Positions 14,880 to 35,427 of a DNA stretch of 64,000 nucleotides are shown piece after piece. A program made the translations under genes and the position numbers. The notes beneath the pieces were generated by a model that did not search any database, had not been told where the DNA came from, and saw only the letters and a program-made list of their open reading frames with translations. This DNA comes from Thermodesulfobacteriota bacterium (GTDB lineage: Bacteria; Desulfobacterota; Desulfarculia; JACQYL01): the NCBI GenBank assembly GCA_963675595.2, contig CAXXLZ010000002.1:3872001-3936000 (forward strand), in the 5' to 3' direction. Position 1 is the first letter of the stretch; each line of letters opens with the position of its first letter.

Positions 14880-16046
14880 ATGGAACGCAAAGAGATCATT
14901 TCCGTAAAAGGAGTCAACAAGAGCTTCAAAGGCGTCCAGGTTCTCAACAACGTGAACCTCGCGGTTTACGAGAAGGAAACCCTTGGAATTATCGGAAAGA
15001 GCGGTGTGGGTAAGAGCCTCATTCTCAAGCACATCATCGGACTGATGAAGGCCGACTCGGGAGAGATTCTCGTGGACGGCGTGAACGTCGCCGAAGCGGG
15101 AAGAGGGGAACTGGAGAAGGTCCGTTCGCGAATGGGGTTCCTGTTTCAGAACGCGGCGCTTTTCGACAGCATGACCGTGTTTGAAAATATTGCCCTTCCT
15201 TTACGGGAGACAACGAAACTGAGCGAAAAGCAGATCGATGATCGCGTCGTGGATTTGCTGGACCATGTGGGGCTGGAGGCCGCCCGCGACAAGTATCCAC
15301 CTCAGTTGAGCGGTGGAATGAAAAAGCGGGTGGGCTTGGCTCGGGCGCTCGTGAATAATCCGGACATTATTCTCTTTGATGAGCCCACGACGGGCTTGGA
15401 CCCGTTACGCAAGAATGCGGTTCATGAATTGATTGCGCACAGCCAGAGACATCACGGTTTCACCGCGGTGATCGTCAGCCATGAAATTCCCGACATCTTC
15501 AATATCACCGATCGTATCGCCATGATCGACCAGGGCGCGATCGTAGTGGACGTGCCTACGACGGAAATCACCAAAGTGAAGAATCCCACTTTTCTTAATT
15601 TCATTTCGGGCGCTCCCAGTTTCCAAAGTCCGCGGGCGGGGCTCGCGAGCCGGGTTGAGTTCGAAGCCCGTGTCGGCGAGGAGCATGAGCGTTCCAAACG
15701 ATATGGTGATCCTTTCACGGTTGTTTTCCTGAGGTTGGGGATTCCTCAGAGCGATACGCTGATGGAGCAATGGCATCTTGATCTTGCTCATATTTTGAGA
15801 AAGAAACTGCGCGTCGCAGACATGATCGGCCGTTTCGACGAACGATGCATCGCTTTCATTCTTCCCGGCACGACCAAGGAGGGAGCGACGCAATTGGCCG
15901 GGAGAATCGGCGGGTTGGTTCGTGAAGCCTTGACGCGGGACGATGAACGCTTGAACCCGAGACTCACTTATGGTTATTCTGAATATGAAGAGAAGAAGAC
16001 CCCGGAAATGATGTTGCAGGAAGCTATTCTCGAGTTGAGAGCGTAA
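14880..16046 (+). CDS. MlaF/Mkl-type ABC ATPase fused to a degenerate GGDEF domain
   Basis: Walker A GKSGVGKS, FLFQNAALFDSMTVFEN, LSGGMKKRVGLAR, ILFDEPTTGLDP; C-terminal RSKRYGDPFTVV...LRVADMIGRFDER. Confidence 0.85.
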   Translation: MERKEIISVKGVNKSFKGVQVLNNVNLAVYEKETLGIIGKSGVGKSLILKHIIGLMKADSGEILVDGVNVAEAGRGELEKVRSRMGFLFQNAALFDSMTVFENIALPLRETTKLSEKQIDDRVVDLLDHVGLEAARDKYPPQLSGGMKKRVGLARALVNNPDIILFDEPTTGLDPLRKNAVHELIAHSQRHHGFTAVIVSHEIPDIFNITDRIAMIDQGAIVVDVPTTEITKVKNPTFLNFISGAPSFQSPRAGLASRVEFEARVGEEHERSKRYGDPFTVVFLRLGIPQSDTLMEQWHLDLAHILRKKLRVADMIGRFDERCIAFILPGTTKEGATQLAGRIGGLVREALTRDDERLNPRLTYGYSEYEEKKTPEMMLQEAILELRA

Positions 16047-17705: not shown

Positions 17706-18704
17706 ATGAAGATGGTTCGAGACCTGCTGACCCCCGAGACGACAGCCCGGTATCAGGCCGTCAGCAATCTTAACATGCGGAGCTCCATATACGATGTGAC
17801 CAACCGGTGCAATCTTCGGTGCAAAGGCTGCTTTTTTTTCTCGAGCGGACAGGACAGAGGGCTCCAAGACGAACCGGATATTGATAAATGGGAAGAATTC
17901 ATTCTCGAAGAGAAACGGCGTGGGGTGAACATGGCCATCCTCATCGGGGGCGAACCCACCCTGTTTCCAGAGCGAGTCGAGCGGTTCCAGCGGCACATGA
18001 AAACGTTCTGCGCCACCAATGGATTGATCCGAATGCCCAGGGAACGTTTCCCGGACATGATGGTGGGAATTTCGCTGTGGGGCTCCGAGGAGGACGAAAT
18101 CGCACTGCGTGGGAAGAACACGTTCCGTACCTCTTTGGAGCATTACCGTGGCGATCCGAACGTCTATTATTTGTATACGATCACTCCGGGGCGTCTCTCG
18201 GCGGTGGAGAAAATGACCAAACGAATCGGGGACGCGGGTTTGAGAGTGCACTACCAGTTGCTCTCCAATGATGAAAATGTTCCCGGATTCACGTTCGACC
18301 TCGAGGAAAAGCGCCGGGTCCGGGATCTTCTGGACGACCTATTGGAGCGCTATCCTCAAGTGGTCATTTCTTCTCACTACTATCACCGAGTGCTGATTAC
18401 CGGCGAGATGATGGGCCGGAAGTGGGGATGGATGGAGTGTCCCTCCGTATCCGAACGGAAGGACCCGCGAAATCCCAGGCCCAAGAGCCTGCCCGGATTC
18501 AACTCGTGGGCCAGCGATCTTAAGACCCTGCACCGGTGTTGCACATCGGATACGCGGAATTGCGATGCCTGTTTCGATGGCGCAGCCCGGATGAGCTGGG
18601 TGATGGTCAACAAGAGACTCCACATGTCCTCCAGAACGGATTTCGAGAACTGGTTGGAGGTCATGGAGATGTTCGCCAAGCTCTATCGTTACGTGCCTTG
18701 GTGA
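17706..18704 (+). CDS. Radical SAM protein (paralog 2) with C-terminal Cys cluster
   Basis: CNLRCKGC, GGEPTL, ATNG, C-terminal C...CCTSDTRNCDAC. Confidence 0.92.
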   Translation: MKMVRDLLTPETTARYQAVSNLNMRSSIYDVTNRCNLRCKGCFFFSSGQDRGLQDEPDIDKWEEFILEEKRRGVNMAILIGGEPTLFPERVERFQRHMKTFCATNGLIRMPRERFPDMMVGISLWGSEEDEIALRGKNTFRTSLEHYRGDPNVYYLYTITPGRLSAVEKMTKRIGDAGLRVHYQLLSNDENVPGFTFDLEEKRRVRDLLDDLLERYPQVVISSHYYHRVLITGEMMGRKWGWMECPSVSERKDPRNPRPKSLPGFNSWASDLKTLHRCCTSDTRNCDACFDGAARMSWVMVNKRLHMSSRTDFENWLEVMEMFAKLYRYVPW

Positions 18705-20029
18705 AGGAAGCGGGACCGGTGCCGGATCCCTACCGTATGAATTTTTCCCCGACGTCCCCCGACAACGGCATTTCCCGAGGAAAGGCTGTTGTAATCGTGT
18801 CTCACGATTGCATCACCCCTTTAGGCGACGGCTCCGATGCCACCTTCCGAAACGCTCTGGAAAGCCGTTCCGGAATCCGCAGGCTCACGTGCATCGACAC
18901 GGACGGAATCCCGGTCAAGTTCGGGGGTGAGGCCGTCAGGCCCGACTTGTCTCACTATCCTTTTCTTTCCGCTCGGGAGCTCAAGAACTGGTTTTCTCCC
19001 GTCATTCCCCACGCCCTGATCGTGGTGCATCGGGCGCTGCGAAAGTCCGGCTTGATCATAGATGAATCCAATCGAGAGCGAATCGGGATGCTGGTTTCAT
19101 CGGCCATCGGAGGCGTGGGGGCGGTCCTCGCCGCTCATGACGCCATGGCCGCCGGGCGTCTGCCCCACCCTTTCTCCAACCCCAATACGTGTCTCAACAT
19201 GATTGGCGGCAAAGCGGCCATTATGTCGGGAGCCGGGGGGCCTATTTACTCCCCGGTGGCTGCCTGCGCCACCGGAGCCGTGTCCGTGGCCTGCGGGGTT
19301 TCCATGATTCAATCGGGTCGGGTGGACGCGGCCGTTTGCGGAGCCGTTGATTTCCCGCTTCATCCCACCATCTTGACCGGGTTCGCCACAATGAACGGCG
19401 TATTTCAAAGTGATGATCCCCGGGATCGTTCGCAGAGCGCCCCCGCCCTCAGTTGTCGTCCGTTCAGTGAAGACAGGAAAGGCTTTTTGGTTTCCGAGGG
19501 TGCGGCGGCGCTGATCCTCGCGTCGGAGTCTTATGCCCGAGCCAAAGGGTTGCCGGTGGAAGGATATGTGGCCGGGATCGGCATGAACTCGGACGCCCAT
19601 CATTTCGTGGTTCCTTTCCAAGAAACTATTACCCGATGCATGCAAATCGCTCTGGATGACGCGGGAATCGAACCGGGCGATGTGGACTACGTCAATGCGC
19701 ATGCGGCTTCCACCCGAGTAGGGGACGCCGTTGAGGTGCGGGCTCTGGAAGACGTTTTCGGTCGAGAGGCTCGCGTTCCGGTGAGTTCCAACAAGTCCCA
19801 GTTGGGGCACACCATGGGCGCTTCCAGCGCCATCGAGATCATCCTTTGTCTCATGGGCATGAAGGAGGGATGGATTCTCCCCACCATCAACCTCTTGCCG
19901 GACCCGGAGTTCGCCCTTGACTTCGTCCCCCACAAACCTCGTCGAGCCGACCTGCGGTACGTGCTGTCCAACTCCTTCGGTTTCGGGGGCTGCAACTGCT
20001 GTGTGATTCTCAGGAGGGCGGACTGTTGA
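18701..20029 (+). CDS. Beta-ketoacyl-ACP synthase, FabF-like (KS1)
   Basis: AACATG (Cys), NAHAAST (His), KSQLGHT (His), SNSFGFGG; start GTG 18701 overlapping the upstream stop, or ATG 18737. Confidence 0.93.
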   Translation: MKEAGPVPDPYRMNFSPTSPDNGISRGKAVVIVSHDCITPLGDGSDATFRNALESRSGIRRLTCIDTDGIPVKFGGEAVRPDLSHYPFLSARELKNWFSPVIPHALIVVHRALRKSGLIIDESNRERIGMLVSSAIGGVGAVLAAHDAMAAGRLPHPFSNPNTCLNMIGGKAAIMSGAGGPIYSPVAACATGAVSVACGVSMIQSGRVDAAVCGAVDFPLHPTILTGFATMNGVFQSDDPRDRSQSAPALSCRPFSEDRKGFLVSEGAAALILASESYARAKGLPVEGYVAGIGMNSDAHHFVVPFQETITRCMQIALDDAGIEPGDVDYVNAHAASTRVGDAVEVRALEDVFGREARVPVSSNKSQLGHTMGASSAIEIILCLMGMKEGWILPTINLLPDPEFALDFVPHKPRRADLRYVLSNSFGFGGCNCCVILRRADC

Positions 20030-21291
20030 GAGCGCCGGAAAACCATCGGGTATTCGTGGTGGGTTACGCGGTTTCCACGGCGCTGGGCCACGGATTGAAA
20101 CGCACGTGGGAGCGGGCGCTCAAGGGAGAATCGGGAATTCGGCGCATCACGCGTTTCGATCCCAAAGAATATAAGGTATGCACCGCCGGTGAGATACCGG
20201 ACTTCGATCCCTCATCCTATCCGTTTCTTACGCGCCGCGAACTCAGAAACTGGCACGCCGGATTCGTACCCCTCACCATGGCGCTGTGCCATGACGCTTT
20301 GGCGGATGCGGGGTTCGAGATCAAGGAAGCGGACGCAGGCCGTGTGGGAGCCGTTATCGGCTCCGCCATCAATGGTTGCGACGCCTTCGAATCGAACCTC
20401 AAAGCCCTGGAAGCCGGGGGCGCGAACAAAGTCAGCCCCTACCTGTTGCCCAATGTGTGCGCCAACCTGCCGGCGGGAAAAGCCTCCATGCTCGTGGGGT
20501 TCAAAGGTCCCCTGTTCGCCGTGGAGAGCGCCTGTGCCACGGGCAACCATTGCATTGCGGAAAGCGCCCGGATCATTCAGCGAGGCGATGCCGACGCGAT
20601 GCTGGCGGGAGGGATCGAACTCCCTTTGCTCGAAGCGATTAACTGCGGCTTCGGGAACATGAACGCCACCTTTTCCGCCCGCGGAGGAGACCGGGCCGTG
20701 GATCGTCCGGAGTTGGGCTCCCGGCCCTACAGCGTGGACCGCAAAGGTTTCGTTCTCGCCGAAGGAGGCGCGGTGCTCGTCCTGGCTTCCGAGGGTTTCG
20801 CGTTGCGTAACGGTTTGGGGCTCAGGGCGGAAGTGTTGGGCACGGCCATGACTTCGGACGCCCATCACTTCACCCAGCCCAACGAGGACGCGGTGACCCG
20901 CTGTATTTCCCTGTGCCTGAGGGATGCGGGAATCGATGCGGCCGAAGTGGACGTGATCAACGGCCACGGCACGTCGACGGTTTCGGGAGATTCCGTGGAA
21001 GTGCACAGTCTTCGAAACGTATTCGGTGAAGGTCTGGCGCGAATCCCCATTGTCTCGAACAAATCGCAGTTGGGCCATTCACTGGGCGCCGCCGCGGCCA
21101 TCGAAGCCGTGTTGGCCGTTGAGGGAATGAAACGCGGAATGCTCTCTCCCACGATCAATTACATAGAGGATCCTGAGTCTGCCGATCTGGATTTCGTCTC
21201 CGAAGGGGCGCGCCCTTTTGAGCACCGAATCGTGCTGTCCAATTCGTTCGGCTTCGGTGGAACCAATTGCTGTGTGGTATTCCGGAAATGA
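20026..21291 (+). CDS. Beta-ketoacyl-ACP synthase, FabF-like (KS2)
   Basis: SACATG, NGHGTST, KSQLGHS, SNSFGFGGTN; 4-bp overlap with KS1. Confidence 0.93.
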   Translation: MRAPENHRVFVVGYAVSTALGHGLKRTWERALKGESGIRRITRFDPKEYKVCTAGEIPDFDPSSYPFLTRRELRNWHAGFVPLTMALCHDALADAGFEIKEADAGRVGAVIGSAINGCDAFESNLKALEAGGANKVSPYLLPNVCANLPAGKASMLVGFKGPLFAVESACATGNHCIAESARIIQRGDADAMLAGGIELPLLEAINCGFGNMNATFSARGGDRAVDRPELGSRPYSVDRKGFVLAEGGAVLVLASEGFALRNGLGLRAEVLGTAMTSDAHHFTQPNEDAVTRCISLCLRDAGIDAAEVDVINGHGTSTVSGDSVEVHSLRNVFGEGLARIPIVSNKSQLGHSLGAAAAIEAVLAVEGMKRGMLSPTINYIEDPESADLDFVSEGARPFEHRIVLSNSFGFGGTNCCVVFRK

Positions 21292-21770
21292 TTCTACGTT
21301 TCAAGATATCCTCATGCGAGGAGGAAGGCGTTTGTCTTGAGGGCGATACGGGGCTTCCGTGGTTCCATACCACACTCCGTGTTCTGTATGCGGACACGGA
21401 CCGCTCCGGCGTGGTGTATCACGCCAATTACCTCAAGTATTTCGAGGTCGGGCGTGCGGCTTTGATGCGTGCTTCGGGCTTTCCCTACAAAGAGGTGGAG
21501 GCCGGCGGATACACGCATCCCATTGTCGAATTGGGGATCAACTTTCAGTCCTACGCCCGTTACGATGACCTCCTTCGCGTGTACTCCCGACCGAAGACGC
21601 TGGAGCGGGTGCGGTTCATTTTCGACTATCGGATCACGAACGAAGCCGGGGACCGCGTGCTGGTGTACGGCTTCACCAGACACTGCTGCTTGAGTCCCAA
21701 ACTCAACCCCGTGGCCGTGGACCCGGAGACGGTGGCGCTGTTTCGAAAATACGGTGCGGTCGAGACATAG
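21288..21770 (+). CDS. YbgC/4HBT-family hot-dog thioesterase
   Basis: RVLYADTDRSGVVYHANYLKYFEVGR; ATGA overlap with KS2. Confidence 0.9.
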   Translation: MILRFKISSCEEEGVCLEGDTGLPWFHTTLRVLYADTDRSGVVYHANYLKYFEVGRAALMRASGFPYKEVEAGGYTHPIVELGINFQSYARYDDLLRVYSRPKTLERVRFIFDYRITNEAGDRVLVYGFTRHCCLSPKLNPVAVDPETVALFRKYGAVET

Positions 21771-21861
21771 CGGCGTTCGACGGCATCGACAAGCAAGTCT
21801 CCGTCTTTGTTTCTTCCGAGGTCCGTGCTCGCGCGCAGGCGTTTACGACGGCGGTGAATCC

Positions 21862-22743
21862 ATGCCATTCTTTCCTTTTCTCACGCCCATACACCAAAAT
21901 TCCGGGACCGACGATTTCCGTCTGTTCGTGGGGCGTTTCGATGCAGATGAAACTCCTTGGCTCAGGGATCATATGATTGCCGGGAAAATCGTGCTGCCCG
22001 CGGCGTTGATTCTGGAAACGGTGTGCCGGGCGGCAAGCCTCGGGTTTCCCGGTCTGTCCTTGGATCGATACGAGTCGGCGGAGTTCACGAGATTCATCGA
22101 GTTGGACGCAAAAGGGGGAACCTCGGAGGTCTTCATCGGACTTTCCCCGGGTCCTTCCGACAAGGGCGAGGAAGGAGTCTGCGAGGTAAAGGTGTACACC
22201 CAGTTCTCCGCCGGTGGGCGTTTCCGACGAAAAAAGGTTCACCATTCGGGAAGGCTGTTTTTCGGGCATTCCGAGCCGTCGACGCCGACTCGAACCGTCG
22301 AGGACGATCCCGGGGCCCAACGTTGCCTGACGCGGGGGCGGGTCTACCCCGACTACGTGGACTTGGGGCCCGCTTTTCAGACGCTGGAGGGGGTTTTTCT
22401 CGTGGGTAACGATGAGATTCGGGCGGAGGTCGAATTGCGGGAAGAAGCCGTCCAAAGTTCTCCCACGGGCTCTGCACTACCGGGGCCTATCCTCCTGAGA
22501 GACGGATGCTTCCAACTCCCCTGCGTTTGGGGAAGGTTAGGCGGTGGCGAAATCCGCATCCCGAGTTCTTTCGGGTCCTTTCACTCCTATCGGTCGATTC
22601 GGGGGCGCCGCGTCGGCTGCCGGGCGGTCTCGGCAGGGGGAGATGAAAAGGAGCGATGGTTCGACCTCGATATTTTCGATGAGGATCGTACGCTGCTTGA
22701 AACGTACCGACGCATGGGGTTTCGTCGTCTTTTTGGGGCGTGA
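21862..22743 (+). CDS. Stand-alone PKS-type dehydratase (double hot-dog)
   Basis: WLRDHMIAGKIVLPAA (HxxxGxxxxP), GPAFQ, and DGCFQ (DxxxQ). Confidence 0.82.
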   Translation: MPFFPFLTPIHQNSGTDDFRLFVGRFDADETPWLRDHMIAGKIVLPAALILETVCRAASLGFPGLSLDRYESAEFTRFIELDAKGGTSEVFIGLSPGPSDKGEEGVCEVKVYTQFSAGGRFRRKKVHHSGRLFFGHSEPSTPTRTVEDDPGAQRCLTRGRVYPDYVDLGPAFQTLEGVFLVGNDEIRAEVELREEAVQSSPTGSALPGPILLRDGCFQLPCVWGRLGGGEIRIPSSFGSFHSYRSIRGRRVGCRAVSAGGDEKERWFDLDIFDEDRTLLETYRRMGFRRLFGA

Positions 22744-22840: not shown

Positions 22841-24292
22841 TTAATGGTCGCCTTCGAACGGCTCTCCTCGAAGCAGGGCCTGTTCCGCCAGTGCGAGCTG
22901 TCTGCCGATGTACATGGCGTGATTGGTGTCGGATACCGCTTCGTCCAGAATGATCTGGTGTTGAATCTTCTCCGCCCGACGTCCTCGATATTCTTTTAAG
23001 GTGACGTTGTTGAACATGTGCTTGGCCACGATCCGGTCTTCTTCCACGGTGATCCTGAAATAGCCGTGGGGATCCTCCCTCAGGCGGTGTTTTCGTGATG
23101 CGGCGATTTGCAGCGCTTTCTCGTACTTCATACCGTGGGAAGGGTCCATGCTGATGGAATGACTGAATACGGTCAAGTTCCCTTTGGGGAGGTCGGCGAG
23201 TGCACACACTTTATCCAGCGCGGCCGTGAGGCCGTAGACGTTCATGAGCCAGGCGTCGATGGCGTTGTGTGTTCGATACAGGGCTGTGAGGTTGAGCTTG
23301 CCTTCGGACAGACGGAAAAAAACCGTAACCAGGCAGGGATTCGCTTTCCGCTCCCGAAAATCCGAGGCGGTGTCCCATAGAGAAATGAATTGATGACGGT
23401 TTTCCGGGTCCTCCGACAAGCGTCGAGCGGCCAGATTCAAGGTATCGCAGCCGAAGTAAGCCCCCAACCGGTTTCCGTAGGTGTATTCGATCAGAGGAGG
23501 CAACTCCGCATTCAGCATATCCTCCCGATATTTTCGGAAAGCCTCCGGGTCGAGCCCCAAAGCCTCCAACGTTGCGTCCGGTTCGGGGGTTGGATCGAGC
23601 ACGGCGACCTTGAGATTCTGTAATTCCTTTCGCACTCCCTTCCGGAGCTCCACCTTCCGTCCGAATCTCGAAAGCTTGAAAAGAACCTCTTTCCAGGCGG
23701 CCGACGGAGTCTGCTCGACGATGCAATGTCCTCCCGGCAGGCTCGGGAAGTGACCAATGGGGATCTCCTTGGCGGGCAGCTCGATACGGTCCGACTCGCG
23801 GGATTCGATTGGGCTTTGTTTGGGAAGCTCTCGGAAATAAGCGTGCAGCGCCGCGATGGACTCGGCGGTGGTCAGGGATCCGATGTGGTCGATGGAGGGC
23901 GGGCTTGAAAACAGTCCGGGGTGCAGCAGGTCGTCCATCACGGCCCGGGTTCCGCGGATCTTGTGGACGGTAACTCCGAGAAAATCCGCCTCTTCGACGC
24001 CGTGGGTAAAAAAACGTCGGAGCTCAACCAGGGAAGAGGAGCGGTTTCTTCCGCAAACGAGCAGTTGAGTCAGTTGGGGGTTGTATAGCAGGTTTCTCAG
24101 GAGTTGGGGCAGCCCATTGCCGTACAACGTGCCCAGAACCGCCACGGGGGAGTCCGAGCCCAGAGGAATTCCCTCTGCTCGGAGAATTTCCAGAACCTTG
24201 GCGGGCCTGGACCATAGAGTGATCACCCCCAAGAAGGCGGAGTCGTTGATCACGAGCAGCTTGTCTCGATAATACAGGGGGAGGAACTTCAT
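22841..24292 (-). CDS. Three-domain protein: MtrA-like N-terminus, thymidylate synthase-like core, DUF4346-like C-terminus
   Basis: VITLWS...GTLYGNGLPQLLRNLLYNPQL..LLVCG (MtrA-like); YTYGNRL, ISLWD, NPCL, YRTHN..DAWLMN (ThyA-like); DPHGYF...HAMYIGRQL..AE (DUF4346-like). Confidence 0.75.
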   Translation of the reverse strand: MKFLPLYYRDKLLVINDSAFLGVITLWSRPAKVLEILRAEGIPLGSDSPVAVLGTLYGNGLPQLLRNLLYNPQLTQLLVCGRNRSSSLVELRRFFTHGVEEADFLGVTVHKIRGTRAVMDDLLHPGLFSSPPSIDHIGSLTTAESIAALHAYFRELPKQSPIESRESDRIELPAKEIPIGHFPSLPGGHCIVEQTPSAAWKEVLFKLSRFGRKVELRKGVRKELQNLKVAVLDPTPEPDATLEALGLDPEAFRKYREDMLNAELPPLIEYTYGNRLGAYFGCDTLNLAARRLSEDPENRHQFISLWDTASDFRERKANPCLVTVFFRLSEGKLNLTALYRTHNAIDAWLMNVYGLTAALDKVCALADLPKGNLTVFSHSISMDPSHGMKYEKALQIAASRKHRLREDPHGYFRITVEEDRIVAKHMFNNVTLKEYRGRRAEKIQHQIILDEAVSDTNHAMYIGRQLALAEQALLRGEPFEGDH

Positions 24293-24294
24293 GT

Positions 24295-24906
24295 TCAGGG
24301 GTTCTTTTCGAAATTGCCCCGCGGTCCTCCAACGTTTTGAAAGGCGGAATTGAAGTCTCTGTAGAGGCGTTTATTGAATTGAATCCGATGCCATTTCTTC
24401 ACGTAACCCGCAGGAATGTCTTCTCGGATTTCCAGTTTGTCCCAACCGCCGGGGATGGGGAAGGCGTAGTAGGGCAGATGTCGGGGAACACCTCGGACGT
24501 AAATCACCTGGGGGATCTTCCACTCCAGGTACGAGAGGTAGACTCGGTGCATGCCGTCGTTAACCAGCAGATGTACGGAGCCGTCGTCCTCGAAGGATTC
24601 CTCGATGACGGGCGGAAGCAGGTCCACGGGTTGTTCGAAGCCTTCCAACGTCAGACGGACGAACCCGTTCAGGCGAAAGAGATCAACACCGTGTTCCTCG
24701 AGGGCCCACTTGAGATTTCGGACTTTTTCCAGTTCGGTACGGAGGAGATAATACTGGGGAGGGGAAAGATGCCGCGTATGAATCCGTTCGAGGCTGATCA
24801 GCGCGTCCCGATACACAAGGACTTCCGGGTCTTCCAGCATGCGGACCTCTTTCATGCGAGATACCAGATCGGTTTCGTTGAAACGTTCGACGTGCAGAAT
24901 GTTCAT
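24295..24906 (-). CDS. ParB/sulfiredoxin-like domain protein
   Basis: LSPPQ and LLPPVIEE...LLVNDGMHRV resemble the ParB/Srx xxDGxHR motif; GGAGG RBS; no HTH; 2 bp from the ThyA-like gene. Confidence 0.6.
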   Translation of the reverse strand: MNILHVERFNETDLVSRMKEVRMLEDPEVLVYRDALISLERIHTRHLSPPQYYLLRTELEKVRNLKWALEEHGVDLFRLNGFVRLTLEGFEQPVDLLPPVIEESFEDDGSVHLLVNDGMHRVYLSYLEWKIPQVIYVRGVPRHLPYYAFPIPGGWDKLEIREDIPAGYVKKWHRIQFNKRLYRDFNSAFQNVGGPRGNFEKNP

Positions 24907-25153: not shown

Positions 25154-25339
25154 TCATTCAGTGCCCGGTTCGCTTTCAATCTCGCGAAAATCGCAATCGT
25201 CGCAGCTCCAGCCGGACCACTTCTTGGCGATGGCATGGTCCAGGCAGTCCGAATAGTAAGGGCAATCGAAGTTGCGTTCGACCTCACCGCTCGCGGCGAT
25301 GGGTTTGCGAGCGAGGTACTGAGCCGTATCAATCACCAT
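25154..25339 (-). CDS. Small Cys-rich protein (RNxxCxxYxxCLDxA family), copy A
   Basis: RNFDCPYYSDCLDHAIAKKWSGWSCDDC; paralog of 25869-26096; GGAG upstream. Confidence 0.75.
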   Translation of the reverse strand: MVIDTAQYLARKPIAASGEVERNFDCPYYSDCLDHAIAKKWSGWSCDDCDFREIESEPGTE

Positions 25340-25868: not shown

Positions 25869-26096
25869 ATGGCGACGGTCCACAAATTACCCCGGCCCAT
25901 CAAACGACTTGGGCACCGTAACGTTTTCTGCCGTCTGTACAACAGCTGCCTGGATTACGCGGTGGAAAAGAAGTGGCTCCATTTCGCCTGCCCCAAGACC
26001 TGCCCTTTGATCGAAGATCAGGGCGAAATGGCGGTTTCCCGGACCAGCAGCGCCTGCCAGTCCTATTCCATATCCAAATGGAAGGTGGAAGGCTAA
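25869..26096 (+). CDS. Small Cys-rich protein (RNxxCxxYxxCLDxA family), copy B
   Basis: RNVFCRLYNSCLDYAVEKKWLHFACPKTC; AGGAG RBS; followed by a terminator. Confidence 0.78.
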   Translation: MATVHKLPRPIKRLGHRNVFCRLYNSCLDYAVEKKWLHFACPKTCPLIEDQGEMAVSRTSSACQSYSISKWKVEG

Positions 26097-32744: not shown

Positions 32745-33920
32745 ATGCGCACCATTGAAGAAATTAACCGGAAAATCCGGGAAGGCCGAGTTGTTGTCTG
32801 CACGGCCGAGGAGATTATCGACGTCGTCCGTGAAAAGGGGAAGGCCGCGGCCGCCCGGGAAGTGGACGTGGTCACCACCGGAACCTTCAGTCCCATGTGT
32901 TCCAGTGGGGCCTATTTCAATATCAAGCAGCCCAAAATCAAGATAAAGATGGGTGGAGGCGCGGCCTATCTGGATGAGGTGCCCGCATACGCCGGGTTCG
33001 CGGCCGCCGACATCTTCCTGGGCGCCACCGCCCTGCCCGATCGAGCTCCCAGGAACATTCGGCATCCCGGCGAATTCCCTTTTGGCGGCGCTCACGTCAT
33101 TGAAGCCTTGGTTTCGGGAAAGAAGGTAACTTTGCGGGCCACGGCCCACGGCACCGACTGTTATCCGGCGGTCGAACGTAAGGAACTCGTCGGACTCGAG
33201 GATATGAACGAAGCGGTGCTGTTCAATCCGAGAAACTGCTACCAGAACTACAACGTGGCCGTGAACTTATCCGATAAGACCATCTACACTTACATGGGGG
33301 TGCTGCGTCCCCACATGGGAAACGCGAATTACTGTTCCGCCGGGCAGCTCTCTCCCCTACTCAACGATCCGAAGTATCGGACCATAGGCATCGGCACGCG
33401 CATCTTCCTGGGAGGGGGCGAAGGCTACGTGATCTGGCAGGGGACTCAGCACAATCCCAGCGTTCCCAGGACGGAAAAGGGGGTCCCGAGGCGCGCTTCG
33501 GGCACGTTGGCCGTTATCGGGGATTTGAAGCAAATGAGTCCGGACTGGCTCAAGGCGGTGAGTTTCACCGGTTACGGCGTTTCCATGGCCATGGGCATCG
33601 GGATACCCATTCCCATTCTGGACGAGCGTATGATCGACTACGTTTCCGTCACGGACGCCGAACTGGTGGCCCCTGTGATGGACTACAGCAGAGATTACCC
33701 TTACAGCGAAGGCAGAGGTTCTCTGGCGGAAGTAACCTATGCCGAGCTCAAAACAGGCAGTATTGAAATCGACGGGAAAACCGTGCCCACGGGGTGTTTC
33801 TCTTCCTACCTCAAGGCCCGGGAGATCGCGGAGATTCTCAAGACCCGTATCAGGGAAGGGAAATTCCTGTTGACCGAAAAGGTGGCGTCGCTGCCCGGCG
33901 CGGAAGGAGGGCAGGGATAA
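32745..33920 (+). CDS. DUF39 homocysteine biosynthesis protein (aspartate-semialdehyde sulfurtransferase, MA1821-like, no CBS domains)
   Basis: MRTIEEIN.KI..G, VDVVTTGTFSPMCSSG, NPRNCYQNY, GQLSPLLNDP, GTQH. Confidence 0.88.
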   Translation: MRTIEEINRKIREGRVVVCTAEEIIDVVREKGKAAAAREVDVVTTGTFSPMCSSGAYFNIKQPKIKIKMGGGAAYLDEVPAYAGFAAADIFLGATALPDRAPRNIRHPGEFPFGGAHVIEALVSGKKVTLRATAHGTDCYPAVERKELVGLEDMNEAVLFNPRNCYQNYNVAVNLSDKTIYTYMGVLRPHMGNANYCSAGQLSPLLNDPKYRTIGIGTRIFLGGGEGYVIWQGTQHNPSVPRTEKGVPRRASGTLAVIGDLKQMSPDWLKAVSFTGYGVSMAMGIGIPIPILDERMIDYVSVTDAELVAPVMDYSRDYPYSEGRGSLAEVTYAELKTGSIEIDGKTVPTGCFSSYLKAREIAEILKTRIREGKFLLTEKVASLPGAEGGQG

Positions 33921-34599: not shown

Positions 34600-35427
34600 A
34601 TGAGCTGGTTTGAAGTGAATCCCAATCTTTGCACACGCAGTGGATTGTGCGCCCGCGTCTGTCCCTCGGGCATCATCCGGCCTCCGGAGGGAGAAGACGG
34701 TTTGCCCGAGCTGATCCAAGGGGCGCAGTCTCTCTGCATCCGGTGCGGGCATTGTGTGGCGGCGTGTCCGGAGGGAGCCTTGGCCGTGGGGGGCATTTCA
34801 GCGGGTCGATGTACGCCCGTCAGGCCGGAATTGAGGGTTTCACCGGAGCAGGCCGAGCAATTGCTCCGTTCGCGTCGTTCCATTCGAAGTTTCCAGGATC
34901 GGCCGGTGGACAAGGCATTGATTCACCAGTTGATCGAGACGGCCCGGTATGCTCCGTCCGGACACAACTCGCAACCCGTCGAGTGGCTGGTCATCCATGA
35001 TTCACTTCAAGTGAAGGCGTTGACCGGTCTGGTGGCCGACTGGATGCGGGACTTGGTAAAAAGGGACGATCCTCTGGCTCGGCTGTGGCATGCCGACAGA
35101 ATCCTGGAGGTATGGGAGTCGGGTCGGGATCGTATCTGTCGCGGTGCACCCCACATGGTTACGGCCCACGGTCGGACGGATCTGGGTACCGCCCCCACGG
35201 CTTGCGTCATCGCACTGGCCTATCTGGAGATCGCGGCGTATGCTCAAGGCCTGGGAGCGTGTTGGGCGGGCTTTTTCAATTTGGCCGCGCTCCGATGGCC
35301 TCCCATGGCCGAAGCGTTGAATCTGCCTCCGGGGCACACGGCTTTCGGTTCCATGATGTTGGGGTACCCCGATATCACCTACCAACGTATTCCACCCAGA
35401 AAAGAGCCGCCGATCGTCTGGAGATAA
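34600..35427 (+). CDS. Nitroreductase with N-terminal ferredoxin domain
   Basis: CIRCGHCVAACP; RRSIRSF, APSGHNSQP, GLGACWAG; the first cluster motif is CTRSGLCARVCP (Cys to Ser). Confidence 0.9.
   Translation: MSWFEVNPNLCTRSGLCARVCPSGIIRPPEGEDGLPELIQGAQSLCIRCGHCVAACPEGALAVGGISAGRCTPVRPELRVSPEQAEQLLRSRRSIRSFQDRPVDKALIHQLIETARYAPSGHNSQPVEWLVIHDSLQVKALTGLVADWMRDLVKRDDPLARLWHADRILEVWESGRDRICRGAPHMVTAHGRTDLGTAPTACVIALAYLEIAAYAQGLGACWAGFFNLAALRWPPMAEALNLPPGHTAFGSMMLGYPDITYQRIPPRKEPPIVWR

Follow-up and report, generated by a model that had tools for sequence, protein, structure and literature searches.

A ThyA-like fusion protein with an altered co-substrate site and a ParB-CE companion, a predicted non-canonical thymidylate synthase of anaerobic bacteria

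Thymidylate synthesis is essential, and to our knowledge only two classes of thymidylate synthase are known, ThyA and ThyX, both of which are drug targets. A stretch of 64,000 nucleotides from a Thermodesulfobacteriota bacterium (assembly GCA_963675595.2, contig CAXXLZ010000002.1, positions 3,872,001 to 3,936,000; hereafter the window) encodes a protein, P0001, in which a ThyA-like core lies between an MtrA-like and a DUF4346 domain. Comparative genomics makes thymidylate synthesis the best-supported function of this fusion, which is probably a route to thymidylate in many anaerobic bacteria. P0001 is predicted, with moderate confidence, to serve as catalytic subunit in a non-canonical thymidylate synthase, acting with a ParB-CE protein encoded 2 nucleotides (nt) upstream. 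Its core retains the nucleophile and the uracil and phosphate ligands of ThyA, while the aspartate that holds the pterin in the classical enzyme is replaced. This widespread variant lacks residues that classical ThyA needs, yet is the only candidate in many genomes.

The P0001 open reading frame (ORF) is stop-free over 483 amino acids (aa), and the three-part fusion proposed in a preliminary description of this DNA was borne out, domain by domain, by Pfam, NCBIfam and a structural search of the predicted model. At the C-terminus, residues 406-480 match PterinBD-DUF4346 (Pfam PF14251, 68.1 bits against a gathering threshold of 29.6, E 1.2e-18), the sole DUF4346 copy in the genome, and NCBIfam model NF002128 matches the same end (E 8.4e-14). 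In the core, residues 191-382 match TIGR03283, the methanogen-type thymidylate synthase of NCBIfam (E 9.9e-30), with 103.6 bits for the protein and 106.2 in the genome scan, which do not reach the equivalog cut-off of 174.55, and Pfam Thymidylat_synt (PF00303) scores 23.5 bits on the protein and 24.8 in the genome scan against a cut-off of 24.3. An AlphaFold2 model built from 26 homologues (mean predicted local distance difference test score, pLDDT, 82.4) was searched against the PDB. Residues 185-398 match 9iqc_A best (Z 20.4, root-mean-square deviation, rmsd, 2.2, 197 residues aligned), followed by MilA (5jnh, Z 18.7) and T4 dCMP hydroxymethylase (Z 15.2); matches to the ThyAs 3ix6, 6auj and 3v8h (Z 14.8-16.2; Foldseek E about 1e-9) indicate that the ThyA alpha/beta fold is present. 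Residues 1-168 match MtrA (5laa_B, Z 12.9, rmsd 2.7, 143 of 159 residues aligned), the next unrelated row having Z 6.7, and a hidden Markov model (HMM) alignment to MtrA 8q3v reveals the common motif NL(L/I)xNPxI(R)xL(V/I)xCG. At the level of sequence, a search of P0001 with Pfam MtrA (PF04208) gave no match at E <= 1, NF002126 reached E 0.061 and a PDB profile E 0.002; P0214, a remote member of the family, scores 33.9 bits, above the Pfam MtrA cut-off of 25. The DUF4346 end, folded within the whole of P0001, gave just weak fold matches to ribosomal proteins (residues 406-477/480, Z about 6).

Residue equivalences were obtained by aligning the family profile to E. coli ThyA (b2827) with hhalign. 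Tyr94, Arg126, Pro145-Cys146, Arg166 and Asn177 of the E. coli enzyme correspond to Tyr272, Arg299, Pro319-Cys320, Arg340 and Asn351 of P0001. Substitutions are found at Arg127 (His300; Lys or His in the family), Ser167 (Thr341), Asp169 (Asn343), and His207 and Tyr209 (Ser381 and Asp383), and the equivalent of Leu143 is Ala317, a variable small residue in the family and not an acidic one. P319, C320, R340, T341, H342, N343 and N351 are invariant in 26 aligned family members, and so are Y272 and R299. The alignment agrees with the earlier reading that the catalytic Pro-Cys and the Asn of WLMN are kept and that the canonical RSxD has become RTHN. In classical ThyA the pterin ring is held by Asp169, and the 3'-hydroxyl of dUMP by His207 and Tyr209; an E. 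coli ThyA carrying D169N reportedly opens the cofactor ring very poorly. P0001 resembles classical ThyA in its fold, in these retained residues and in the inferred reaction from dUMP to dTMP, but its core is about 60 residues shorter and lies between two extra domains, the residues at 169, 207, 209 and 127 are changed, and a ParB-CE gene accompanies it.

The distribution of the fusion was followed in 41 genomes of the same class, this one (G000) included, in 251 genomes spread over the phylum, and in five holders from other phyla. Of the class genomes, 11 have the fusion, which in one of them (G036) is broken in two at contig ends (G013 gives a twelfth match, limited to the core), and ParB-CE occurs in exactly those 11 and in 0 of the other 30. 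In the phylum sample 14 genomes have the fusion and 19 have ParB-CE, which is present in 14 of 14 fusion holders; it is likewise present in 5 of 5 holders from other phyla, and overall in 29 of 29 holders (11 from the class, 13 new ones from the phylum and five from other phyla). ThyX is distributed in a complementary manner: it is found in 24 of the 41 class genomes, namely in 23 of the 30 non-holders and in one of the 11 holders (G005), where it is split, and no ThyX match was obtained in 18 further phylum genomes (the 13 holders and five with ParB-CE only) or in the five holders from other phyla. An intact ThyX is present in 0 of the 29 holders. The fusion is the sole ThyA-type match in six of the 11 class holders (G005, G016, G018, G026, G034 and G036), the sole TIGR03283 match in 10 of the 13 new phylum holders, the model being one that also detects E. 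coli-type ThyA in control genomes, and the sole ThyA-type match in three of the five others; it is, then, the only ThyA/ThyX-type gene in 19 of the 29 (6 + 10 + 3). Because it is the sole candidate in those 19, no intact ThyX accompanies it, ParB-CE is found throughout, and genes for dCMP deaminase and HAD hydrolases recur nearby, the fusion is most likely a housekeeping thymidylate synthase. The preliminary description had offered both a non-canonical thymidylate synthase and a pyrimidine-modifying enzyme; the absence of intact ThyX, the sole-candidate genomes and the recurrent dCMP deaminase support the first, whereas the second is a poor fit to a housekeeping distribution. As a separate observation, the G005 ThyX (G005:C145:18796-19318) consists of two pieces covering model positions 2-100 and 122-181, and may be a decaying gene replaced by the fusion/ParB-CE cassette.

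The feature that tracks the RTHN change is the adjacent ParB-CE gene. ParB-CE occurs without the fusion in five genomes of the phylum sample, four of family f63 and G219. In f63, a stand-alone ThyA-like gene is present in all four genomes, which lack both ThyX and DUF4346; the motif is FRSWN (Asn169) in 3 of 3 f63 stand-alone proteins read, as it is in the stand-alone copies of G000-G004. The more distant stand-alone forms of G010, G013, G027, G030 and G031 read FRSWD, and all five of these genomes lack ParB-CE; every examined genome with the Asn form has it. An Asn-type core with ParB-CE and without DUF4346, as in f63, implies that the extra domains are not what accompanies the altered site.

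Both lineages of the core, fused and stand-alone, contain Asp and Asn forms. Among 372 parsed cores, 54 of which had other or unreadable motifs, the fused ones comprise 154 with Asn169 and 35 with Asp169, and the stand-alone ones 28 with Asn169 (some being fragments of fused proteins) and 101 with Asp169. The best 120 stand-alone relatives include 96 of Asp type, about 224 aa long, and 24 of Asn type, about 260 aa long and carrying an insertion, while FRSHD and S(A)HIY, corresponding to Asp169, His207 and Tyr209, are retained by distant fused members of 27-33% identity. A quick maximum-likelihood tree (IQ-TREE; midpoint root for drawing only) was made from 93 cores, comprising all genome-derived cores and at most 22 random protein-set rows for each of the four groups, with six likely fragments and every row with another motif set aside. 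The stand-alone cores all cluster together (support 98). Nested within the fused Asp forms is a single group of fused Asn forms (support 99; 25 Asn rows and the long-branch P0205), and the stand-alone Asn forms make up two groups (support 100 each) among the stand-alone Asp forms. Because fused and stand-alone Asn forms sit in separate clades, the Asn change arose at least twice. The only columns at which the Asp groups agree and both Asn groups differ are 169, which defines the groups, and His207 and Tyr209; in the Asp forms of both lineages position 169 is conserved at 100%, and 207 and 209 at 90-100%. All four groups share Cys146, Arg166, Asn177 and Tyr94 without exception, and the Arg126 equivalent is likewise retained. 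To judge from these alignments, the triple change at 169, 207 and 209 arose at least twice, in fused and in stand-alone forms. Four stand-alone Asn169 proteins, P0295 (330 aa), P0394, P0395 and P0401, which make up 4 of the 13 in a 90% cluster, have a C-terminal 4Fe-4S ferredoxin-like tail, a weak hint of outside electron input; the rest of the cluster is without this tail.

These patterns bear on the simplest alternative, that the fusion is an ordinary folate-dependent ThyA. It would then convert methylene-tetrahydrofolate to dihydrofolate, with Asn343, Ser381 and Asp383 as tolerated drift, the extra domains binding polyglutamylated folate or having a regulatory part, and ParB-CE a mere neighbour. 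The equivalents of Cys146, Arg166, Asn177, Tyr94 and Arg126 are indeed kept, many members bear the name 'thymidylate synthase' in databases, the Asp-type distant fused members retain all three of the residues in question, and folate is the likely one-carbon carrier in this organism, given that the genome has pterin-binding proteins and no Mch (tetrahydromethanopterin was ruled out as that carrier on the latter ground). An ordinary ThyA is nevertheless unlikely in view of the loss of three near-invariant residues together, at least twice, and of the partition of ParB-CE, which accompanies the Asn form in 29 of 29 holders of the fusion and in 3 of 3 f63 stand-alone cores read, and is found in 0 of 5 genomes with Asp-type stand-alone genes.

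The nearest known structure belongs to a group of enzymes with different chemistry. According to a published study, phage ThyA homologues that make 5-hydroxy-dCMP bind flavin and not folate, Asn169 is the diagnostic residue of these flavin-using homologues, and the homologue from HY126 is PDB 9iqc (PMC13326640). The flavin 5-hydroxy-dCMP synthases (HY126 AfhB, 9iqc/9iqu; RB69 gp48; DLP3 gp80) share Asn169 with P0001, but are phage-encoded, act on dCMP with O2 and carry N177D and L143E, whereas P0001 is chromosomal and keeps Asn177. In a PDB profile search at the sequence level the P0001 family gave no significant match to 9iqc.

This likeness raises the possibility of a pyrimidine-modifying paralogue, a flavin 5-hydroxylase or hydroxymethylase of dUMP, UMP or a differently phosphorylated nucleotide, with dTMP in this organism made by a second, stand-alone ThyA-like copy. 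The dCMP hydroxylase 9iqc and the CMP hydroxymethylase MilA rank above classical ThyAs, D169N is the published signature of 5-hydroxy-dCMP synthases, and the residues that bind the 3'-OH are gone; a phosphorylated intermediate would suit a kinase-like partner and a HAD phosphatase, and the second copy does lie beside a dCMP deaminase gene. Yet such an enzyme is quite unlikely, given that the fusion is the sole ThyA/ThyX-type gene in 19 of 29 holders while tmk is present in 41 of 41 class genomes, that the uracil-specific Asn177 is kept and position 143 is not acidic, that an O2-dependent hydroxylase is at odds with the named holders, which are sulfate reducers and strict anaerobes, that PADLOC found no defence system, and that the stand-alone copy here is itself of Asn type.

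The two outer domains were likewise considered as sources of the altered chemistry. In MtrA the lower axial ligand of the cobamide is His84 (PMC4915002). The HMM alignment to 8q3v places Ser87 of P0001, invariant across the family, at this position, in accordance with the earlier remark that the MtrA-like domain lacks the cobamide-ligating His. A corrinoid-assisted transfer, in which a cobamide in the MtrA-like domain would take a methyl group from a methyl-pterin, aided by DUF4346, and pass it to the Cys-activated C5 of dUMP so that no dihydrofolate is produced, has in its favour the MtrA fold match and the common motif. It is very unlikely, since the cobalt ligand is an invariant Ser (by eye the same in the distant fused members inspected), the Asn-type cores of the four f63 genomes run with ParB-CE and without DUF4346, and the fusion exists in Asp and Asn forms, so that the altered site is not tied to the MtrA-like domain. 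A further suggestion, that the extra domains recycle the pterin and possibly replace dihydrofolate reductase (DHFR), found no support: FolA was found in 0 of 41 class genomes, whatever their type of thymidylate synthase, and f63 combines an Asn core and ParB-CE without DUF4346. The count of 0 of 41 also led to missing FolA being set aside as uninformative support for a DHFR-free mechanism. In G000 itself neither ThyX nor FolA was found, and the check for thyA turned up the second stand-alone copy.

The partner protein belongs to the ParB-CE family, which has its own Pfam entry (PF24392; E 3.1e-70, 235.3 bits against a threshold of 23, residues 42-187). Its likely start is the ATG at 24906, behind GGAGG, which gives 203 aa; this start is preferred because the alignment of 14 orthologues begins at M30. 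The stop codon, TGA, ends 2 nt ahead of the P0001 ATG, and promoter and terminator scans gave sites no more numerous than in shuffled sequence. With respect to the helix-turn-helix and dimerisation domains of ParB partition proteins, no Pfam family other than PF24392 matches at E <= 1, the model is single-domain, and Spo0J reaches just Z 2.0. In a structural search of the predicted model (pLDDT 85.4, predicted template modelling score 0.82), 13 PDB chains reach Z >= 2, led by the free serine kinase SerK (5x0b, Z 6.0), sulfiredoxins (6ky4, 6.0; 1yzs, 5.8), Atu1540 (5.8), the ParB-like PadC (5.6) and the serine kinase SbnI (5ujd, 5.3), after which come ParB-N, Osa and KorB; ParB-CE sequence gave no match to PDB chains even at E <= 10. 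The modelled fold thus supports the ParB/sulfiredoxin class, whose members use nucleotides, and just this class. The orthologue alignment contains a DGMHR motif, which presumably sits at the place of the nucleotide-binding box. PF24392 has no match in 14 model genomes used as controls, control methanogens among them. A role for ParB-CE as a replacement for thymidylate kinase was ruled out by the presence of tmk in all 41 class genomes.

On these grounds the following course may be proposed for the predicted non-canonical thymidylate synthase. The core would bind dUMP, Cys320 would attack C6, and a one-carbon unit would be added at C5 to yield dTMP. The co-substrate site would no longer take methylene-tetrahydrofolate in the classical manner, and a flavin-like ring might be bound instead, as in the published Asp169-to-Asn homologues. 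ParB-CE, whose nearest folds are the small-molecule kinases SerK and SbnI and sulfiredoxin, would supply either a nucleotide-dependent step or a part of the site that compensates for the lost residues. The MtrA-like and DUF4346 domains would be accessory modules from an older Asp169-type fusion, not needed for the altered chemistry, because they are found with Asp and Asn cores alike and are missing from the f63 system. The altered site and the strict pairing with ParB-CE argue that the chemistry differs from that of classical ThyA, and the occurrence of a uracil-specific Asn169 core in presumed anaerobes points to an altered co-substrate site and not to a hydroxylase. Carried further, the same reasoning leads to a third kind of thymidylate synthase, a ThyA fold with Asp, His and Tyr replaced, which would use a flavin-like cofactor or an outside reductant as ThyX does, form no dihydrofolate, have a ParB/sulfiredoxin-type partner, have evolved at least twice, and make housekeeping dTMP in many anaerobes; this wider proposal is tentative and, taken whole, rather doubtful.

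Several observations weigh against the predicted role or its proposed chemistry. Only 15 of 80 loci have ParB-CE at a distance of up to 6 kb from the fusion, many loci being cut by contig ends. Ten holders, this genome among them, have a stand-alone ThyA-like gene as well, and here it is the second copy, not P0001, that lies beside a dCMP deaminase gene, so that P0001 could have another task in this organism. Two genomes of the same class, G020 and G028 (96% and 87% complete), gave no match to ThyX, the fusion or a stand-alone ThyA-like gene, which shows that detection is incomplete. The Asn state rests on readings of the 26 aligned members, of three genomes (G000, G016 and G034) and of the protein sets, which cover a subset of the holders. 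FolA is absent regardless of synthase type, and missing DHFR is therefore no argument that no dihydrofolate is made. The flavin reading draws by analogy on one residue and a structural neighbour, and the published flavin enzymes carry N177D and L143E and use O2, the P0001 family being without either change. Finally, all ParB-CE fold matches lie below Z 8, middling by the scale of the tool.

If the chemistry does differ, textbook pathways and genome-based metabolic models of sulfate reducers, syntrophs and Armatimonadota need correcting. No description of DUF4346, the ParB-CE family, a P0001-type protein or their pairing was found in titles and abstracts, nor was a role of ParB-CE in nucleotide metabolism found described in the literature searched. 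There may also be a bearing on an old question, the cofactor of short archaeal thymidylate synthases, which is called poorly known in a published account (PMC9012536). The methanogen-type enzymes (TIGR03283) are the best sequence family for the P0001 core, and stand-alone bacterial relatives about 224 aa long, which carry Asp169, His207 and Tyr209, occur commonly in related bacteria, but P0001 is fused and of Asn type, and the control methanogen genomes lack ParB-CE. ThyX (PF02511) would be a functional analogue if the Asn core uses flavin and an outside reductant; the two have no relation in sequence or fold, and ThyX has neither a nucleophilic Cys mechanism nor a ParB-like partner. The cytoplasmic MtrA homologues and MtrA-DUF4346 proteins of archaea (5laa, NF002128) resemble P0001 in the N-terminal fold and motif and in the DUF4346 end, but P0001 has Ser at the His84 position, lacks a membrane anchor and carries the ThyA core inserted between the modules.

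The family is large. A word-based search returned 656 relatives, nearly all of 477-530 aa and of the same architecture, under the source names 'thymidylate synthase', 'DUF4346 domain-containing protein' or 'hypothetical protein', and an exhaustive search of 50%-identity representatives gave 1208 matches at E <= 1e-3 and 152 at E <= 1e-30, mostly full length, with identity down to 27%. A search for shorter homologues with core residues 186-400 gave no match. Scanning one genome per species yielded 168 stretches that encode a relative, 80 of which are the named loci to which the locus results refer. Cultured holders exist among the 80 (Desulfacinum infernum DSM 9756, D. hydrothermale DSM 13146, Desulfovirgula thermocuniculi DSM 16036 and Desulfocucumis palustris), which makes the predictions directly testable; these named holders are sulfate reducers and strict anaerobes. 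Holders known as metagenome-assembled genomes are labelled Desulfobaccales, Syntrophobacterales, Syntrophales, Armatimonadota, Vulcanimicrobiota and Bacillota. Variant architectures include P0144 (758 aa), to which a C-terminal HAD hydrolase domain is fused, and P0007 and P0122 (786-797 aa), with a second DUF4346 after about 230 unassigned residues.

Gene neighbourhoods were surveyed by grouping, with BLAST, the ORFs that lie up to 6 kb away in the 80 named loci and scanning a single member of each cluster. Within this distance of the fusion are found a HAD-IA hydrolase/phosphatase in 17 of 80 loci, ParB-CE in 15 and a dCMP deaminase in 13; the nearest models for the HAD-IA neighbour are CTE7, REG-2 and the pyrimidine nucleotidase YjjG, all below cut-off. 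Two fully scanned loci of family f3 (L036, L040) have the order ParB-CE, dCMP deaminase, fusion, UvrD-type helicase, and two others (L038, L039) have it in part. In the window no deaminase or HAD gene adjoins P0001. The stand-alone second copy, about 119 kb from P0001, has a 35-residue insertion before the catalytic Cys and is directly upstream of a ComEB-like dCMP deaminase gene (L003 802-1401); the two ThyA-like proteins may be redundant or divide the work. The coordinates of the features are collected in Table 1.

Table 1. Positions of the fusion gene, its domains and key codons, its partner gene and the second ThyA-like copy (window coordinates unless marked otherwise)
Feature	Position	Strand	Evidence or remark
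P0001 gene (483-aa three-domain MtrA-like/ThyA-like/DUF4346 protein)	22841..24292	minus	ORF, family searches, homologues ~488 aa full length
N-terminal MtrA-like Rossmann-type domain, residues 1-168	23789..24292	minus	VIA-align 5laa_B, HMM alignment 8q3v
Ser87 of P0001, at MtrA cobalt-ligand His84 position	codon 24032-24034	minus	HMM alignment
Short archaeal-type ThyA-like catalytic core, residues 185-400	23093..23740	minus	TIGR03283, fold matches, residue mapping
Cys320	codon 23333-23335	minus	
Asn343 (Asp169 position)	codon 23264-23266	minus	
Asn351 (Asn177 position)	codon 23240-23242	minus	
C-terminal PterinBD-DUF4346 domain, residues 406-480	22853..23077	minus	Pfam PF14251
ParB-CE (ParB/sulfiredoxin-fold) partner gene	24295..24906, longest ORF to 24993	minus	Pfam PF24392
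Second stand-alone 258-aa ThyA-like gene, Asn169 type	G000:C2:4054888-4055661 (L003 1429-2205)	minus	outside window

Among the other genes of the window, a row on the plus strand (18536-22743) that converges on the P0001 operon encodes two ketosynthases of FabF type, a 4HBT thioesterase and a dehydratase of polyketide synthase type; it looks like a small polyketide or lipid gene set and, with a LysR regulator gene, makes up the neighbourhood of P0001. The interval from ParB-CE to the LysR regulator gene is empty but for two small Cys-rich ORFs of 61 and 75 aa (25154-25339, minus strand, and 25869-26096, plus strand) that share C..Y..CLD.A..KKW....C. An HcyBio gene (methanogen-type homocysteine biosynthesis; 32745-33920, plus strand) and a ferredoxin-nitroreductase fusion (34600-35427, plus strand) are another archaeal-type pathway in the window. 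At 14766-16046 (plus strand) an ABC-transporter ATPase domain is fused to a GGDEF diguanylate cyclase domain.

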